A stretch of 64,000 nt of DNA, taken from NCBI GenBank assembly GCA_963796215.1, contig CAWCKU010000001.1:127032-191031 (forward strand), in the 5' to 3' direction. The translations under genes and the position numbers were made by a program. Source of the stretch: an uncultured delta proteobacterium. GTDB taxonomy: Bacteria > Desulfobacterota > Desulfobaccia > Desulfobaccales > 0-14-0-80-60-11. A model generated the notes under the pieces. That model saw nothing but the letters and a program-made list of their open reading frames with translations, did not search any database and was not told the DNA's origin. This document shows positions 30,565 through 49,055 of this stretch, one piece after another (within the stretch, counting starts at the first letter, position 1; every line of letters begins with the position of its first letter).

Positions 30565-32810
30565 TGCAAGCAAACCGCCCTGAGACGCAGGAACAACTCA
30601 AGGAGCAGCGGAAGCGCCGCCGGGAACGCGCCCTCATCGCCATCACCCTGGTGCTGGTGGTGGCTATCACCTCCCTGGAAGTACGCCTGGTGCACCAGGG
30701 CGGCCAGCCGTTGACCGGCAGCCTCCTGGCCTTCGGGCTCTTGAATATCAACACCTTCCTGCTACTGCTCTTCACCTTCCTCATCTTCCGTCATCTGTCC
30801 AAACTCTTCCTGGAGCGGCGCCGCAAGGTCTTCGGTTCCCGGCTGCGCACCCGTCTGGTCCTCACCTTCATTAGCCTGACCCTGCTGCCCACCCTGTTCC
30901 TCTTTTTCATGGCCTGGCAGTTGATCGGCAGCAGAGTAGACCATTCCTGGGACCGGCAGGTGGAGGAATCCCTGGACAAGGCCATTGACCTGACCCGCAC
31001 CTTCTCCCTGGACCTGGAGGATAACCTCAGGGCCTATGGCCGCATGTTCGGCCAGGAGTTGCAGGAACAGGACAACTGGACCACGGGCGACCGGGATTTT
31101 TTCCAGTCCTTTGCCGACCGCAATCGCTCGGCTTATCACCTCAGCGGCCTGGAGGTCTTCGATGTCCACCAGACGCCCCTGGCCGCCAGCTACGATCCCC
31201 GCTTGGGGCAGCTGCCGGGACTGCCGGCACCGGAGCCCGGGGCGGCTGTGCCACCGGATACGGTGATCCGGCAGAAGGTCGGCGCCGATGAGGTTTTGAG
31301 CCTCCAGGTGCCGGTGACCGACGCCGCCGGCGACCTCAAGGGTTACCTGCTGGTGCGCAAGAGCCTCCCCAAGACCCACCTGCTGCGCATCGCCGAGGCC
31401 ACCCGTAACCTCCAGGAGTTGCGCCAGCGCCAGCTCCAGCTTAGCCCCGTCAAGGTGAGCCATTACCTGGCCCTGATCATCGTCACCCTCATTGCCATGA
31501 TGGCCGCCATCTGGCTGGGGTTTTACATGGCCCGGGAGATCACCACCCCGATCCGGCAGTTGGCCGAGGGCACGGTTAAGGTGGCGGGGGGCAACTACGA
31601 TATCCACATCGACCAGGAAGGGCGGGACGAAATCGGTTTCCTGGTACAGTCCTTCAACAAAATGACCCAGGACCTGCAGCAAAGCCAGGCCCAGCTGGCC
31701 GCAGCCTACCGGCAGTTGAGCCAGTCCCACGAACTCATTTCCACCCAGAAGCGGGACATGGAGATCCTGTTGAAGAACGTGGCCGCCGGGGTCATCGGCC
31801 TGGACGCCGCCGGCCGGGTCACCCTCATCAACGACTCCGCCGCCCAGATGCTGCACCTCAACCGGGAGGAAGTGTTGGGCCGGGAGGCTAAGGTTTTGCT
31901 GCCCCCGGCGGAATATAGCCGCATGGCCGAAGTGGTGGCCGCGGCCCGCCGTGCGTCCAGGGGTACGGTGGAGAGGCCCCTGCACCTGGTCCTGCCCAAT
32001 CAGACCCTCTATCTGTTGCTCAAAACCACGGTGCTCAAGGATGAAGCCGGAGGCGACCTGGGCGTGGTCATCGTCTTTGAAGACCTGACCGAGCTGGAGC
32101 GAGCCCAGCGCCTGGCGGCCTGGCGGGAGGTGGCCCGGCGGATCGCCCATGAAGTGAAAAATCCCCTGACGCCCATCAAGTTGGCGGCCCAGCGGCTGCA
32201 GCGGCGTTACGCCGAACGCCTGGGCGAGGACGATCAGGTTTTCCAGGAATGCACCCAGATCATCGTCAATCAGGTGGATGAACTCAAAAACCTGGTGAAT
32301 GCCTTCTCCCGATTCGCCAAGCTGCCCCAGCTCACGCTGATGCCCCAGGACCTCAACGCCCTGGTCCAGGAGACGGTGCTCCTGTACCAGGAACTCCAAC
32401 CCCGGGTGGCGCTGGAGTTTCACCCCGATCCCCAGTTGCCGCTCCTGCTTCTGGACCGGGAGCAGGTGAAGCGGCTGCTCCTCAATTTGCTGGACAACGC
32501 CCTGGCCTCCATTGACGGGGCCGGCAAGGTTACGGTTTCTCTGCGGCGACATCCGGCCGACGGCAGAGTGGAACTCACCGTGGCCGACACCGGCCGCGGC
32601 GTCCCGGACCGGGACAAGGTGCGGATCTTTGAGCCCTATTTCTCCACCAAGCGGGGCGGCACCGGCCTGGGCCTGGCCATCGTCAATTCCATTGTGGCGG
32701 AGCATCAGGGCCATATCCGGGTGGAAAACAACCTTCCCCGGGGGGCCAAATTTATTATCGACCTTCCCATGCACAGGGCTGAATATGCCGGGAACATTGC
32801 TGGTAGTTGA
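30564..32810 (+). CDS. ntrY: NtrY-like sensor histidine kinase (TM-HAMP-PAS-HisKA-HATPase)
   Basis: ATG 30564 overlaps the upstream TGA (cTGATG). AWREVARRIAHEVKNPLTPIKLAAQRLQRRY is the NtrY-type H-box. HAMP and PAS segments lie upstream. The track ORF start at 30354 lies inside the previous gene. Confidence 0.8.
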   Translation: MQANRPETQEQLKEQRKRRRERALIAITLVLVVAITSLEVRLVHQGGQPLTGSLLAFGLLNINTFLLLLFTFLIFRHLSKLFLERRRKVFGSRLRTRLVLTFISLTLLPTLFLFFMAWQLIGSRVDHSWDRQVEESLDKAIDLTRTFSLDLEDNLRAYGRMFGQELQEQDNWTTGDRDFFQSFADRNRSAYHLSGLEVFDVHQTPLAASYDPRLGQLPGLPAPEPGAAVPPDTVIRQKVGADEVLSLQVPVTDAAGDLKGYLLVRKSLPKTHLLRIAEATRNLQELRQRQLQLSPVKVSHYLALIIVTLIAMMAAIWLGFYMAREITTPIRQLAEGTVKVAGGNYDIHIDQEGRDEIGFLVQSFNKMTQDLQQSQAQLAAAYRQLSQSHELISTQKRDMEILLKNVAAGVIGLDAAGRVTLINDSAAQMLHLNREEVLGREAKVLLPPAEYSRMAEVVAAARRASRGTVERPLHLVLPNQTLYLLLKTTVLKDEAGGDLGVVIVFEDLTELERAQRLAAWREVARRIAHEVKNPLTPIKLAAQRLQRRYAERLGEDDQVFQECTQIIVNQVDELKNLVNAFSRFAKLPQLTLMPQDLNALVQETVLLYQELQPRVALEFHPDPQLPLLLLDREQVKRLLLNLLDNALASIDGAGKVTVSLRRHPADGRVELTVADTGRGVPDRDKVRIFEPYFSTKRGGTGLGLAIVNSIVAEHQGHIRVENNLPRGAKFIIDLPMHRAEYAGNIAGS

Positions 32811-34217
32811 CGACGAGCCCCAGATTCTCCAGGTGGTGGCGGGCATCCTCCAGGACGAGGGCTTTGAGGTGCTCACCGCCCCGGATGGCGAGACCGCCCT
32901 TAAAATGGTGGCGGGAGCGGCCCCGGAACTGGTGCTCCTGGACATTTCCCTGCCGGGTCTGGACGGCCTGGAGGTGCTCACCGAACTGAAGCGCCAGTAC
33001 CCCTTCCTGCCGGTGATTATCATCTCCGCCTACGGCTCGGTGGAGAACGCCATCAAGGCCACCCGCCTGGGGGCCTACGATTTCATCGAAAAGCCCCCCA
33101 ACGCCGACAAGATCCTGCTGTCGGTGCGCAATGCCCTGGAACTGGCCCGGCTCTCCGAAGAGAACCGGCGCCTCCGGCAGCAGACCGCCCCGGTCAAGGA
33201 GATCATCGGCGTAAGCTCCGCCATCCAGCCGTCTGCGAGAGAAATTGGACCTGGTCGCCCCCACCAACGCCTCGGTGCTCATCACCGGGGAGAACGGCAC
33301 CGGCAAGGAATTGGTGGCCCGGGCCCTGCACGCCCAGAGCCGCCGGGCGAACTACCCCTTCGTGGAGGTGAATTGCGCCGCCATCCCGGAAGACCTCATC
33401 GAAAGCGAGCTCTTCGGCCATGAAAAGGGCGCCTTCACCGGGGCCTCCGCCCGGCACCGGGGCAAATTCGACCTGGCCCACGAAGGCACCCTGTTCCTGG
33501 ATGAGATCGGCGACATGAGCCTCAAGACCCAGGCCAAGATCCTGCGCATCCTGGAGGAACAGCGCTTCGAGCGGGTGGGGGGCAGCCGCCCCATCCAGGT
33601 GGACGTGCGGGTGGTGGCCGCCACCAATAAGAACCTGGAGGAGGAGATCATTCGGGGGACCTTCCGGGAAGATCTCTATCACCGCATCAACGTCATCCCC
33701 CTTACCGTCCCGCCCCTCCGGGAGCGCCGGGAGGACATCCCCCTGCTGGCGGCCTATTTCCTCCGGGAGCTCTCCCAGGCGGGCGACGCCCCGGTCAAGA
33801 CCTTCTCGGCCGCGGCCCTCAAGGCCCTGGCCACGATGCCCTGGCCGGGGAACGTCCGGGAACTGAAAAATTTCGTCTTCCGCCTGGCCATCCTCAGCCC
33901 CGGCTCCGTCATTGACGTGGCCGAGCTGCCCCTGGCCGCCTCGGCCCAGGAACGCGGCTGCGGCCCTGGCCGAGGCCGCCGCCGGCGCGGAGGGCGCGCC
34001 CGACTTGGACATCGACCCCTTCCTGCAGGTGCCGTCCTTCCGTGAGGCCCGGGCCCTGTTTGAAAAACAATTCCTGCGGCGCAAACTGACGGAATGCCGG
34101 GGCAACGTCAGCCTCCTGGCCGAGCAGGTCGGCCTGGACCGCTCTAACCTTTACAAGAAGCTAAGGCCTATGGCTTGGAGCCGGGAAAGGAAGAGGGGTA
34201 AAAGGGGAAAAGGTTAA
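32785..34217 (+). CDS. ntrX: Sigma-54-dependent response regulator NtrX-like, three frame disruptions
   Basis: [15 protein letters not shown].. REC domain, AAA+ [15 protein letters not shown] and [39 protein letters not shown]. Pieces 32512-33423, 33245-34045 and 33912-34217. A 1-nt repair near 34160 would end the protein at 34201 (..[12 protein letters not shown]). Confidence 0.85.
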
Positions 34218-34235
34218 GAGGGGAAGGGGAAAAAT
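34184..34235. repeat. Purine tract, left arm of an imperfect inverted repeat
   Basis: GGAAAGGAAGAGGGGTAAAAGGGGAAAAGGTTAAGAGGGGAAGGGGAAAAATC. It is partially complementary to the pyrimidine tract at 34818-34853. Confidence 0.6.
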
Positions 34236-34237
34236 CA

Positions 34238-34263
34238 GTAGGCGGGCGAGACGCCCGCCCTAC
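34238..34263. repeat. REP-like palindrome (family 1 variant)
   Basis: GTAGGCGGGCGAGACGCCCGCCCTAC, followed by CATACTTTTCATTC. It may also terminate ntrX. Confidence 0.8.
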
Positions 34264-34360
34264 CATACTTTTCATTCGGTCCGCGTAGGCCGGAAAGCCT
34301 GGGCCACCAATTGGCACCTTCGGAACAGAAATAACCCCAGCGTCACGATGAAATAAAGAA

Positions 34361-34418
34361 AGCCGGGGCTTCCAGCTCCTCTTCTCGGAGAGGAGGGGTT
34401 TCTGGAAGGTCCCCGGCT
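34361..34418 (-). terminator. 58-nt, roughly 22-bp composite hairpin followed on the minus strand by a U-rich tract
   Basis: Three stems pair: AGCCGGGG/CCCCGGCT, CTTCCAG/CTGGAAG and CTCCTCT/AGAGGAG. The minus-strand 3' flank is UUUCUUUAUUU. Confidence 0.5.
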
Positions 34419-34748
34419 TCCCTAAGGCCACGACGCCGCGTCCTGTGCTCCTTCGGGAGCAAACGCCTCGGAAACGTCCGAGATGGCGCGGCCTTTGATA
34501 ACTACTTGGCCGGTAGAGCGGGCCTTTGCCGCCGCGTCCGGCAGCAACGCCCAGGCGCCCGTACTGCTTGCTAATCTAAAAGGGCTGCCTTTGCCCGGCG
34601 GCCAAAGCAGTTATCCGGCAGATCCGCCTGGAGGATCATCCTCAAAACGTCCGGCACCAAGGACTTTTCTCCAGCCGGCCGCTATTCAGGCTGACCCGTC
34701 AATTATCAAATAATCACTCCCGAGGCAAAAAGCAAGGTTGCTCTAATC

Positions 34749-34804
34749 CCCAAGCAGAACTTGGGTCAAATAAAAATGCGTTCCCAAGCTGGAGCTTGGG
34801 AACG
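34749..34804. repeat. REP-like palindromes, family 2 (two copies)
   Basis: CCCAAG-cagaa-CTTGGG (34749-34765) and CGTTCCCAAGC-tgga-GCTTGGGAACG (34779-34804). Confidence 0.85.
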
Positions 34805-34817
34805 AGTAAGTGACTAG

Positions 34818-34853
34818 TTTTTTTCGCCTTTTCCCCTCTTCCCCTTTTCCCCC
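34818..34853. repeat. Pyrimidine tract, right arm of an imperfect inverted repeat
   Basis: TTTTTTTCGCCTTTTCCCCTCTTCCCCTTTTCCCCC lies directly after the radical SAM stop codon (34859-34861 on the minus strand). Confidence 0.6.
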
Positions 34854-34858
34854 TGCTC

Positions 34859-36712
34859 TTAAATCTGCCCGCCCACCTCCGCCAGGGTCTTGAAATAGAT
34901 GCGGCGGATGCGTTTCAGGCGCTTCTTGAAGCACAGCCCCAGTTCCATGCAGGCGGTGTAAAAGGAGACGGGGCTGAATTCGAGGGCCATGAGCCGGGCC
35001 ATGGTCTCCTGGGCCAACTCCTGGGGCAGGTCCTTGATCTTTTGGGCCGCGTCCCCCAATCCCTGCCACAAAGGCAGCAGCACCAGGTCGGCCTTTTCCT
35101 GGAGTTTGGCGATTTCGCCCTTCACCGCGGCCAGGGGACCGGCGTCGCACTTCACATCGCAGCCTTCCTGCACCACCTCCACCCCCAGGCGTCTCAGGAA
35201 ACGCAGCAGGAATTCCCGGGGAGCGTTTTCCCAGGGTCCCAGCTTCCAGATATCCGCCGGGATTCCCACCCGGGGCACTTCGTTGCCGCCCGGCAGATGC
35301 TGGCGCAGTCGCCGGGCCTGGACGAAGAGCCGTTCTTTGAGCTGGCGGAAGTACTGGTTTTTCCTGGAGTTGGACTTCCACAAGAGGATGCGGGCGTAGG
35401 CCTTGATATAGGCGTAAAACAGGTCCCGGGCCAGGAGACGCTTGACCACCGAGGGCCAGGAGTAAAACTTTTTCATGGCCCGGTTGGTTTCCATCTGCAG
35501 TTCAAAAGGGGTGAACTGGCGGGGCTGGAAGACCGTGTGGTGGCCGTCGTACTGGCTCCAGTCCCGGCAGATGATGCGGTTTTGGGCCTCCATTTCCTGG
35601 TAGGACGGGGTGCCCGGCAACGGCGTCAGGATCAGATATTGCAGGGAGTCCAGGTCCAACTGGCGCGAAACCTTGACGGTGTCCCGGATCACCTGGTAGT
35701 GGTCCTCTTCGGCGCCGAAGACGAACATGCCGTGGACCTTGATGCCGTGACGGTGGAAATTGACCACGCCCTCCTTGATGCCTTCCACCGTTTGGGACTT
35801 ATTGTAGGCCTTCAGAGTGGCCGGGTTGATGGATTCCAGGCCCACGAAGACCGCAAAGCAGCCGCTCTTGGCCATCAGGTCCAGGAGTTCCGGGTCCTTG
35901 GCAGCCTCCACCCGCACCTGGGCGCTCCATTCGATCTTCAAGCCTGCCCCGATGATACGTTCGCATAATTCCTTGGTACGGGCCCGGTTGGCCGTAAAGT
36001 TGTCGTCGCAGAAGAAGATGTGGTTGGCTTGGAGGCCGTTTTGGCGAATCTCCGCCATGACGCGGTCCACCGAGTTGACGCGGTGTTTGCGCCCGAACAG
36101 GATGATCACCGAACAGAAGCTGCAATTGAAGGGGCAGCCTCGGGAGGTGGCAATGGAGACGACGCCTTTGCCCCGCTTGGCCTTCCAGCCGTGGATCAGG
36201 CCATAATTGGGGATGGGCAGGACATCCAGGTCCTCCACCAAAGGGCGCCAGGGATTTTGTTGGATGGTGTCTCCCCGGCGAAAACAGAGGTTCTGGATGC
36301 CGCTGACGTCGCCGCCGCTTTCCAGGGCGCTCACCAGCTCCGGCAAGGCCCCTTCGCCTTCGCCGCAGATGACGTAGTCGGCGTGCTCCAGGCCTTCCCG
36401 GGGCAGAAAACTGGCATGGGCGCCGCCCAACACCACCGGGAGGCCCTGGTCCCGATAGAAATCCGCCAACTCATAGGCCCGGGGGGCCGTGGAAGAGATG
36501 CTGGAGATGCAGACCAGGTCCGGTTTAAAATCCAGGGAAGCATAGTCCGGGGCGAACATCTCTTCGATGATCACCTTGACCTCCAGCCCCTGGTGTTGCA
36601 GGATGGTGCCCAGCAGGAGCGACCCCAGGCGCGGAATGGCCACCCGGCTGAAAATATGCTCCTGGGGGGCCCGAGGTTCGATGAATAGAATCTTGTTCAT
36701 GGGTCGCGCCAT
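34859..36712 (-). CDS. B12-binding domain radical SAM protein with roughly 190-aa C-terminal extension
   Basis: An N-terminal cobalamin-binding-like domain (KILFIEP.., DLVCISSISS) is followed by CPFNCSFC (CxxxCxxC). The ORF is an intact 617 aa. Confidence 0.85.
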   Translation of the reverse strand: MARPMNKILFIEPRAPQEHIFSRVAIPRLGSLLLGTILQHQGLEVKVIIEEMFAPDYASLDFKPDLVCISSISSTAPRAYELADFYRDQGLPVVLGGAHASFLPREGLEHADYVICGEGEGALPELVSALESGGDVSGIQNLCFRRGDTIQQNPWRPLVEDLDVLPIPNYGLIHGWKAKRGKGVVSIATSRGCPFNCSFCSVIILFGRKHRVNSVDRVMAEIRQNGLQANHIFFCDDNFTANRARTKELCERIIGAGLKIEWSAQVRVEAAKDPELLDLMAKSGCFAVFVGLESINPATLKAYNKSQTVEGIKEGVVNFHRHGIKVHGMFVFGAEEDHYQVIRDTVKVSRQLDLDSLQYLILTPLPGTPSYQEMEAQNRIICRDWSQYDGHHTVFQPRQFTPFELQMETNRAMKKFYSWPSVVKRLLARDLFYAYIKAYARILLWKSNSRKNQYFRQLKERLFVQARRLRQHLPGGNEVPRVGIPADIWKLGPWENAPREFLLRFLRRLGVEVVQEGCDVKCDAGPLAAVKGEIAKLQEKADLVLLPLWQGLGDAAQKIKDLPQELAQETMARLMALEFSPVSFYTACMELGLCFKKRLKRIRRIYFKTLAEVGGQI

Positions 36713-48182: not shown

Positions 48183-49055
48183 TTACTGGGCAGAATTCGC
48201 CTGGCGTACCACCCGGAAGCCGATATAGCCGTCGGCATAGCCGGGCGGGGCGGATTGGCGGGCGGCACTCCTAAGGTCCCGGGCCAAGGAGAACCAGGAG
48301 CCGCCTTTCAGCAGGCGCAGCAACCCCGGTTTGAAAGGGCCGGAGCCTGTCGGCACATACTGGTCCAGGCACCATTCCGAGACGTTGCCGGCCAGATCGA
48401 ACAGGCCGAAGCCATTGGCGGCAAATGAACCCACGGCCGCGGTAAAGAGATAACCATCCTTGGCTGTCCGGTCATGGCGCAGATTGGCGCGGTAAACCCC
48501 GCCGGCGTCCGGGGCCTCCGCCCCCCAGGGGTAGGGCTGGCCGGTGAGGCCGCCCCGGGCTGCGGCCTCCCACTGGGCCTCGCTGGGCAACTGGTGGACC
48601 GCCCCGGTCACCTGGGTGAGCCAGCGGCAGCAGGCCACGGCGTCATCCCAGGTCACCCCCACCACCGGCTGGTTGGGGGCATTGAGGTTTTTGTCCTGCC
48701 AATACAGGGGCGGCTGCTGGCCGGTGGCCTTGAGAAAGCGCCCGTACTGGGCGTTGGTGGTCTCGGTCACGGCGATATAAAAGCTATCCACCCGCACCCG
48801 GTGGGGCGTGTCTTCGTCGGCGTAGCGCCCCGGCTCGCTGACCGGCGAACCCAGCAGATAATAGCCGGCCGGGATGAGGCGGAAATGGAGGCCCTGGGAC
48901 TCCAGGGTGTCTTGGGCCTGGGCGGAGCAGACGAGCGCGAGTAGCCAGCCCAGCGACAGGAACAGGAGTCCCAAGGTGCGGCGGTCAGTTTTCCGGTGGC
49001 CGGCCCTGGCTTTGTTCCGCCACATTTTTTTGACGTTTCGCTGGGCTCGATCCAT
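48183..49055 (-). CDS. Formylglycine-generating-enzyme (FGE-sulfatase/SUMF1) domain protein, secreted
   Basis: A signal peptide is followed by PVVGVTWDDAVACCRWL, LPSEAQWEAAARGG, DLAGNVSEWCLD, LKGGSW and GFRVV. Confidence 0.85.
   Translation of the reverse strand: MDRAQRNVKKMWRNKARAGHRKTDRRTLGLLFLSLGWLLALVCSAQAQDTLESQGLHFRLIPAGYYLLGSPVSEPGRYADEDTPHRVRVDSFYIAVTETTNAQYGRFLKATGQQPPLYWQDKNLNAPNQPVVGVTWDDAVACCRWLTQVTGAVHQLPSEAQWEAAARGGLTGQPYPWGAEAPDAGGVYRANLRHDRTAKDGYLFTAAVGSFAANGFGLFDLAGNVSEWCLDQYVPTGSGPFKPGLLRLLKGGSWFSLARDLRSAARQSAPPGYADGYIGFRVVRQANSAQ

Follow-up and report, generated by a model that had tools for sequence, protein, structure and literature searches.

A likely structured non-coding RNA gene of a lineage-restricted family at the core of a repeat-flanked intergenic gap in an uncultured Desulfobaccales bacterium

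Introduction

Bacterial RNAs of several hundred nucleotides (nt) that are as structured as the one described here are uncommon, and those that have been studied are often ribozymes, ribonucleoprotein cores or global regulators. The closest described systems are the orphan large RNAs, among them OLE, raiA, ROOL and GOLLD as well as the Rfam motifs Bacteroidales-1 and Acido-1. They share with the element reported here that they are stand-alone and lineage-restricted, measure several hundred nt, contain many covarying helices and multi-helix junctions, carry their own promoter and terminator and lack a conserved protein-coding partner, and that their function is not evident from context. Here, we analyze a 64,000-nt stretch of DNA from an uncultured delta proteobacterium of the order Desulfobaccales (GenBank assembly GCA_963796215.1, contig CAWCKU010000001.1, positions 127,032 to 191,031), hereafter called the window, and specifically the gap of about 640 bp between its convergent genes ntrX and a B12-binding radical S-adenosylmethionine (SAM) gene. 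The host assembly consists of 27 contigs and is 84.6% complete. We find the gap to be a mosaic in which dispersed repeats at the edges surround a single RNA gene at the core. The best explanation as a whole, which we consider probable, is that the minus strand of positions 34351-34700 is an independent non-coding RNA gene of about 350 nt. An earlier reading made from the letters alone, here called the original prediction, had suggested among other things a structured minus-strand RNA of roughly 400 nt; a discrete, conserved and covarying minus-strand unit is indeed present, with a length closer to 350 nt.

The RNA family to which this unit belongs differs from the orphan large RNAs in that it matches none of them in sequence or structure as judged with the Rfam 15 models, is limited to one Desulfobaccales family, is commonly multi-copy and in tandem, and is not linked to prophages or tRNA clusters. 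When the 4227 models of Rfam 15 were run against the core itself and a typical copy of the family (b-type, see below), nothing meaningful was returned at E-values up to 10, positions 33000-36000 of the window gave nothing at E-values up to 1, and 20 copy-carrying loci gave no match at gathering level. The structured core is thus without a match to any Rfam family. Further, the identities of three well-known large RNAs could be dismissed: the host encodes its RNase P RNA (G000:C2:77580-77943) and its signal recognition particle (SRP) RNA (G000:C15:310110-310204) elsewhere, and its transfer-messenger RNA (tmRNA) was found elsewhere in the genome by ARAGORN. A search of the literature on non-coding RNAs of Desulfobacca and Desulfobaccales found nothing relevant.

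Results

A conserved structured unit at the core of the gap

Comparison of the gap with related genomes returned a homologous core in two relatives, and only positions 34355-34737 matched as a block, with 95% identity in G011 and 78% in G010. Both alignments have sharp boundaries beyond which the flanks are unalignable, and their indels are 1 or 2 nt long instead of multiples of three, which fits a non-coding sequence. No reading frame is conserved across the members of the RNA family on either strand, with ORF (open reading frame) lengths and positions being inconsistent, which bears out the earlier view that the gap holds no credible ORF. A Pfam search with the 76-amino-acid plus-strand ORF returned nothing.

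Folding of the minus strand gave a free energy of -183.7 kcal/mol (z-score -7.1), compared with -159.7 kcal/mol (z-score -3.7) for the plus strand. Four domains are predicted for the transcript: a multi-helix junction at the 5' end is followed by a long branched hairpin, a domain of three helices and the terminator hairpin (Table 1). In the family consensus, domain 1 forms a four-way junction; the window copy has a remodelled version that carries non-canonical marks relative to the model. The terminator stem of domain 4 is unusually conserved in sequence, with several pairs that hardly vary between genera, and its inner helix covaries. The hairpins that the original prediction had singled out agree well with this fold: the composite hairpin at 34361-34418 is present within the predicted helix of domain 4 and is followed by a minus-strand U-run, together yielding a terminator-like call, and each of the stems at 34446-34461, 34467-34482, 34575-34612 and 34630-34645 belongs to the predicted minus-strand structure. 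The internal motif recurrences that it had pointed out on the minus strand do exist in the window, but the wider family consensus does not contain them.

Table 1 Features of the gap between ntrX and the radical-SAM gene (window positions).
Feature	Position	Strand	Basis or remark
Purine tract, (GGGGAAAA)-like, ~8-nt period	34184..34235	+	Dispersed repeat, also found elsewhere in the genome and in relatives
REP family-1 hairpin just past the ntrX stop	34238..34265	.	Many near-identical genome copies
Probable structured RNA gene, ~350 nt, diverged a-type paralogue	34351..34700	-	Covariance model R1, 224.9 bits over full length
Domain 4, long composite terminator hairpin, then U-rich run 34355-34345	34356..34423	-	Helices 17-20
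Domain 3, closing helix and two inner hairpins (34446-34461, 34467-34482)	34424..34495	-	Helices 11-16
Domain 2, long irregular branched hairpin	34497..34615	-	Minimum free energy (MFE) fold; helices 6-10 with covariation
Domain 1, 5' multi-helix junction closed by helix P1	34617..34700	-	MFE fold; consensus helices 1-5
Promoter-like region: -35-like TTGCTT 34735-34730, 17-nt spacer, -10-like TATTTG 34712-34707	34707..34735	-	Aligns with family motif
Two REP family-2 hairpins: short form 34749-34765, full 12-bp palindrome 34779-34804	34749..34804	.	Dispersed copies
Pyrimidine tract, same repeat family as the purine tract in opposite orientation	34818..34856	+	Inverted-repeat partner

Comparative sequence analysis points to a conserved secondary structure backed by compensatory changes. 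The set used for structure analysis comprised 77 model hits, 69 of them distinct and including sequences from 31 metagenome contigs, and RNAalifold yielded a consensus of 109 pairs. Across the 69 sequences, 89.9% of cells at these pairs are standard pairs, compared with 35-48% when the partners are slid, and the covariation score is 0.218, compared with 0.05-0.08 for slid partners. Fifty-seven pairs are altered on both sides, compared with 37.5 +/- 3.3 in shuffles (0 of 500 shuffles reach 57), and the number of individual cells altered on both sides is 286, compared with 97 in shuffles. A smaller sequence set gave similar covariation figures, and alignments made with MAFFT only show the same trend, with compensatory change in 23/117 and 21/60 pairs. 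Frequent G-U alternates at paired columns place the RNA on the minus strand of the window.

Distribution, copy number and contexts of the RNA family

The RNA family is confined to six genera of one uncultured Desulfobaccales family, a group related to sulfate reducers. With a covariance model built from 30 sequences (R1), full-length matches were obtained in 44 of the 69 genomes of the host's GTDB family, specifically in 13/14 genomes of the host's own genus, 17/18 of genus g3, all nine of genus g9, and 1/1, 2/4 and 1/2 genomes of genera g17, g11 and g10, respectively. The remaining eight genera of this family gave none, the sister family contributed one weak match in 14 genomes, and none of the 146 other sampled genomes of the phylum was hit. 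With the b copy of the host as a single query, related sequences were recovered from 28 of the 69 family genomes. An exact-pattern scan of the genome contigs returned only G010 and G011 in addition to chance matches, and a pattern search of metagenomes found nothing with fixed spacing and 31 contigs when a variable gap was allowed. Carriage by phages or other mobile elements was considered and dismissed, as the 15 viral contigs that share a 16-mer with the RNA hold no copy.

Carrier genomes encode one to five copies, and tandem or clustered copies are common. Three copies are found within 8 kb in G075 and G076, and pairs lie 100-200 nt apart in G050, G077, G081 and G082. In the clusters G076:C115:3952-9558, G075:C11:27787-32978 and G077:C164:34657-35579, two or three paralogues each have their own promoter. 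The cluster paralogues at these loci are orthologous between species, which suggests that the clusters are old and maintained.

Three copies are present in the host genome: the a-type copy of the window, the b copy (283 bits) and a 254-nt copy of the c-type. The b copy (G000:C6:46750-47097, minus strand), which first surfaced as a weak partial own-genome match, is full length with the same ends, represents the canonical type and is syntenic in G011, G012 and G013. The c-type copy (G000:C16:63278-63531, minus strand) keeps domains 1 and 3 and the terminator but has no domain 2, and its alignment to R1 skips 120 model positions there. At least six further genomes of the genus also contain short c-type-like copies, and the recurrence of short copies without domain 2 indicates that the family is modular.

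The genes that flank the RNA differ between genera, and the distance to the downstream gene varies between 57 and about 1000 nt. In genus g3, a divergent pirin gene lies on one side of the RNA and a Metallophos gene downstream of it, the b copies of the host's own genus lie upstream of an ADP-forming acetyl-CoA-synthetase-like gene, and in g9 a chemoreceptor gene and a spermidine-synthase-like gene are interspersed among the clustered copies. The commonest neighbour is the Metallophos gene, an orthologue of which is found in 12 of the 14 genera, including the RNA-less g19 (8/8). A partnership between the RNA and this neighbour was rejected, given that the gene also occurs in RNA-less genera and no RNA lies upstream of it in the four such genera examined.

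Promoter-like motif and terminator

Upstream alignment of 44 copies combined with an anchored consensus revealed a family motif in the 70 nt read ahead of the RNA. It consists of A/T-rich tracts, which most copies have, followed by CCCTTGttTT, about 12 nt and aTGnTTAata, it precedes about 40 copies in unrelated contexts, and the RNA starts about 40 nt past the C of CTTG. Judged by its sequence, this motif resembles a sigma-70-type promoter preceded by an A/T element. In the window copy, the -35-like TTGCTT is retained, as is a TGnTTA-type -10 region, TATTTG. At the other end, the terminator hairpin and U-run are conserved across the family. We infer that the unit is transcribed. Transcription of the window RNA would probably start near 34700 from its own sigma-70-type promoter and would end at the intrinsic terminator formed by the domain 4 hairpin and the U-run.

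Origin of the window copy

The intergenic distance between ntrX and the radical-SAM gene varies strongly within the genus. In five relatives the same two genes are only 78-150 nt apart without an RNA between them, and the gap measures 296 nt in G012, 500 nt in G009, about 640 nt in the window, 2183 nt in G007 and 2960 nt in G011. Examples of the junction in relatives are G008:C1:3292241-3292340 and G011:C254:12722-15683; in G011, the enlarged gap holds, besides the RNA, genes for Vsr and Mrr-type nucleases and one for a 23S rRNA intervening-sequence protein (23S-IVP), and this last gene is bracketed by tracts of the same family as those of the window. In the phylogeny, the a-type copies group together on a long branch (0.49) within the clade of the genus. 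From this and the variable gap we conclude that the window copy arose by duplication within the genus and landed in an insertion hot spot. The a-type copy of G010 is found at a different location, adjoining a histidine kinase gene.

Flanking genes and dispersed repeats at the edges

ntrX lies on the plus strand at 32512-34201, with its end placed by tblastn against the G011 orthologue, and its stop codon (34199-34201) falls within the purine tract, the first bases of which encode the ntrX C-terminus. The radical-SAM gene lies on the minus strand, and its stop codon (34859-34861) is abutted by the pyrimidine tract; an equivalent pyrimidine tract precedes the radical-SAM stop in G011 as well. 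The gap is therefore real, as had been described, but its proper extent is 34202-34858 instead of 34184-34860. As a side observation, the window ntrX contains three single-base indels (two insertions and one deletion, at 33227, 33953 and 34163) relative to the 97% identical G011 orthologue, splitting it into three frames. None of the indels is located in a long homopolymer, and either ntrX has become a pseudogene in the window or the indels stem from assembly errors.

The purine and pyrimidine tracts flank the gap as described by the original prediction and constitute an inverted repeat of 32 nt with 81% complementarity (34194-34225 and 34823-34854). It had also been thought that they could close a very long-range helix, but the RNA unit ends well short of both tracts. 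When further purine-tract termini were sought genome-wide, a strict scan for (GGGGAAAA)-like tracts returned about 22 on the host contigs, either purine or pyrimidine, 32-50 nt long and repeating every 8 nt; most of them stand alone. Examples are G000:C3:48638-48678 with 48713-48746, G000:C21:123856-123892 and G000:C24:39995-40033. One tract pair in the genome is a close inverted repeat, tracts are also found in relatives, and those in G011 are located at the borders of inserted genes.

The three hairpins at the gap edges that had been assigned to one repeat of family 1 and two of family 2 are real dispersed repeats. They resemble repetitive extragenic palindromic (REP) sequences and bacterial interspersed mosaic elements (BIME) in being short G+C-rich palindromes that are scattered intergenically, often right after stop codons. 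This resemblance explains only the edges of the gap and does not extend to the 350-nt core, which is no dispersed repeat. The host genome contains 16 copies of REP1 and 32 of REP2 when up to 4 mismatches are allowed, and both families as well as the tract repeats are present in most relatives. The REP1 hairpin, which has a terminator-like site with a T-run on the minus strand (34260-34240), plausibly closes ntrX on the plus strand. The full REP2 copy is a perfect 12-nt inverted repeat followed by a minus-strand T-run after 34804-34779, giving a terminator-like call, and probably terminates the radical-SAM transcript. When the whole 677-bp stretch was searched against the genome, only pieces of it recurred, namely the purine tract, 34238-34265 and 34733-34813.

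Alternative explanations for the gap

The original prediction had offered three explanations for the gap: a structured minus-strand RNA, either as an independent transcript or as a long 3' untranslated region (UTR) of the radical-SAM gene, a non-autonomous element with purine-tract ends, or just stacked REPs. An independent transcript is the one favoured by the discreteness of the unit, its covarying pairs, its own promoter-like motif and terminator, and the many unrelated contexts in which the family is found. A long 3' UTR or other cis-acting part of the radical-SAM mRNA would agree with the RNA unit lying directly downstream of that gene on the same strand, yet the REP2 hairpin and T-run intervene between the radical-SAM stop and the RNA promoter, and a promoter motif precedes the unit both in the window and in about 40 other copies. 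Further, the G010 a-type copy adjoins the histidine kinase gene instead, other copies follow pirin, methyl-accepting chemotaxis protein (MCP) or methyltransferase genes, and five relatives have the two genes in close, RNA-free proximity; we regard this explanation as very improbable. The same holds for the proposal that the whole gap is an element of the miniature inverted-repeat transposable element (MITE) type, with the tracts as its ends and the RNA as its cargo. Inverted tracts do bracket the gap, the gap is an insertion hot spot, a purine and a pyrimidine tract bracket the small 23S-IVP gene beside the RNA in G011, and the location of the a-type copy differs in G010. However, the tracts are mostly single and equally found in relatives, the left one overlaps the coding end of ntrX and in G011 lies 2.1 kb from the RNA, the RNA terminates about 120 nt short of the left tract, and the 70 nt read upstream of other copies show no evident tract. 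In addition, the 677-bp unit as a whole has no second copy in the host genome, and neither a target-site duplication nor a transposase was seen. Stacked REP-type repeats accompanied by chance hairpins in G+C-rich DNA account for the edges, where four features are dispersed repeats, but as an explanation of the entire gap they have a negligible chance of being correct: own-genome matches to the core amount to a partial hit of its one full-length paralogue, and the 350-nt unit is conserved across six genera with compensatory changes. A cis-regulatory leader or riboswitch was likewise rejected, as downstream genes and their distances vary, the Metallophos neighbour is also found in RNA-less genera and, in the window, no same-strand gene follows the RNA because ntrX converges on it.

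Several observations weigh against an independent RNA gene at the window locus, and those that concern the window copy itself would also fit a different explanation, namely that this copy is a decaying, non-functional pseudogene while the b-type and c-type loci are functional. The window copy is the least typical one, scoring 225 bits compared with 283 for the host's b copy and 283-368 for typical copies in general, it keeps 81 of the 109 consensus pairs compared with 91 in the b copy, and its branch is long. It has a remodelled domain 1 and lacks the P4 loop motif. The upstream A/T tract is absent, with REP2 copies in its place, the promoter hexamers match the consensus at only 3/6 positions each, and a strict sigma-70 consensus scan calls no promoter for this copy. 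It resides in an insertion hot spot, and of the 15 genomes of the genus only three, namely the window's own, G010 and G011, have an a-type copy. When the window and G010 copies are compared under the family consensus, 18 of 30 differing pairs are broken. At the level of the family, all genomes carrying the RNA are uncultured metagenome-assembled genomes (MAGs), and the covariation counts come from partly model-fitted alignments from which the structure itself was derived, with statistics that ignore phylogeny. On the other hand, the window copy is full length with an intact terminator and keeps the -35 and TGnTTA promoter motifs. Even though its flanks are unalignable, it is 78% identical to the G010 copy, similar to the 82% of neighbouring coding genes, and between these two copies paired columns diverge by 18% and unpaired ones by 31%. 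Under an a-type-specific consensus fold, 25 of 37 changed pairs remain canonical, and the fold z-score of the window copy (-6.8) is the strongest among those tested. Decay of the window copy into a pseudogene is thus unlikely in our view, and an independent non-coding RNA gene remains our preferred explanation for the core.

Comparison with CsrA sponges and 6S RNA

Among characterized regulatory RNAs, the CsrB/CsrC and RsmX/Y/Z sponges resemble the family in several ways. CsrB is of similar length (about 350 nt), the sponges have their own promoter and an intrinsic terminator and they occur as several paralogues per genome, sometimes in tandem; moreover, the host encodes four CsrA-family proteins (G000:C12:81801-81950, C3:231206-231337, C12:57893-58027 and C13:185908-186042). 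Nevertheless, the RNA described here consists of few long multi-helix domains and not of a string of short GGA-loop hairpins. A role as CsrA sponge was rejected, with GGA occurring 11.2 times per RNA compared with 10.2 times in dinucleotide shuffles, which is no enrichment, and with the six GGA positions that are conserved in at least 60% of members located in or at stems instead of hairpin loops.

Similarities to 6S and Ms1-type RNAs include a likely high abundance, a conserved promoter after A/T tracts and a probably trans-acting, protein-binding mode of action. The 6S model RF00013 found no match in any of the 69 family genomes, but it also detects only 5 of 14 control genomes, and a 6S RNA of the host lineage, if it exists, is too diverged for this model. 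The family fold, with its four side-by-side domains, is not the long rod with a central open-promoter-like bubble expected of a 6S-like RNA. It should further be noted that the 8 of 14 family genera without this RNA are equally without detectable 6S, which indicates that the RNA does not fill a 6S gap.

Discussion

We tentatively propose a trans-acting RNA that would bind proteins or serve as a scaffold, in a stoichiometric manner. This proposal is a guess built on indirect arguments, which also weighs against our overall interpretation, and we give it somewhat less than an even chance. Tandem paralogues have been retained across species, which suggests that the RNA acts in trans and depends on dosage and stoichiometry. 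The most conserved parts are helices, junctions and the terminator stem, and no long single-stranded stretch is invariant, a pattern that favours protein binding or a tertiary fold over seed pairing. We also take it as weighing against a base-pairing regulator that no Hfq or ProQ genes were found in the one 85%-complete host genome searched. A base-pairing regulator is accordingly an unlikely option, a ligand-sensing or catalytic RNA still less probable, and some other or unknown mode of action would have a modest chance.

It is conceivable, but rather unlikely, that the family represents an undescribed class of large multi-domain RNAs with a biochemical function of its own, carried by the conserved junctions and invariant helices and unlike that of an ordinary regulatory small RNA, for example ligand sensing, catalysis or service as a dedicated ribonucleoprotein core. 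If true, such a class would be specific to this uncultured Desulfobaccales family. For the window, a puzzling gap of 640 bp becomes an annotated region that comprises probable terminators for two genes, dispersed repeats and a single likely RNA gene. For the lineage as a whole, the family is an RNA family without an Rfam counterpart that is kept at one to five copies, with own promoters, across six genera. Adding it to RNA databases could stop gaps of this kind from being annotated as empty, and the family provides a concrete, testable handle on RNA-based biology in a lineage known only from metagenomes.

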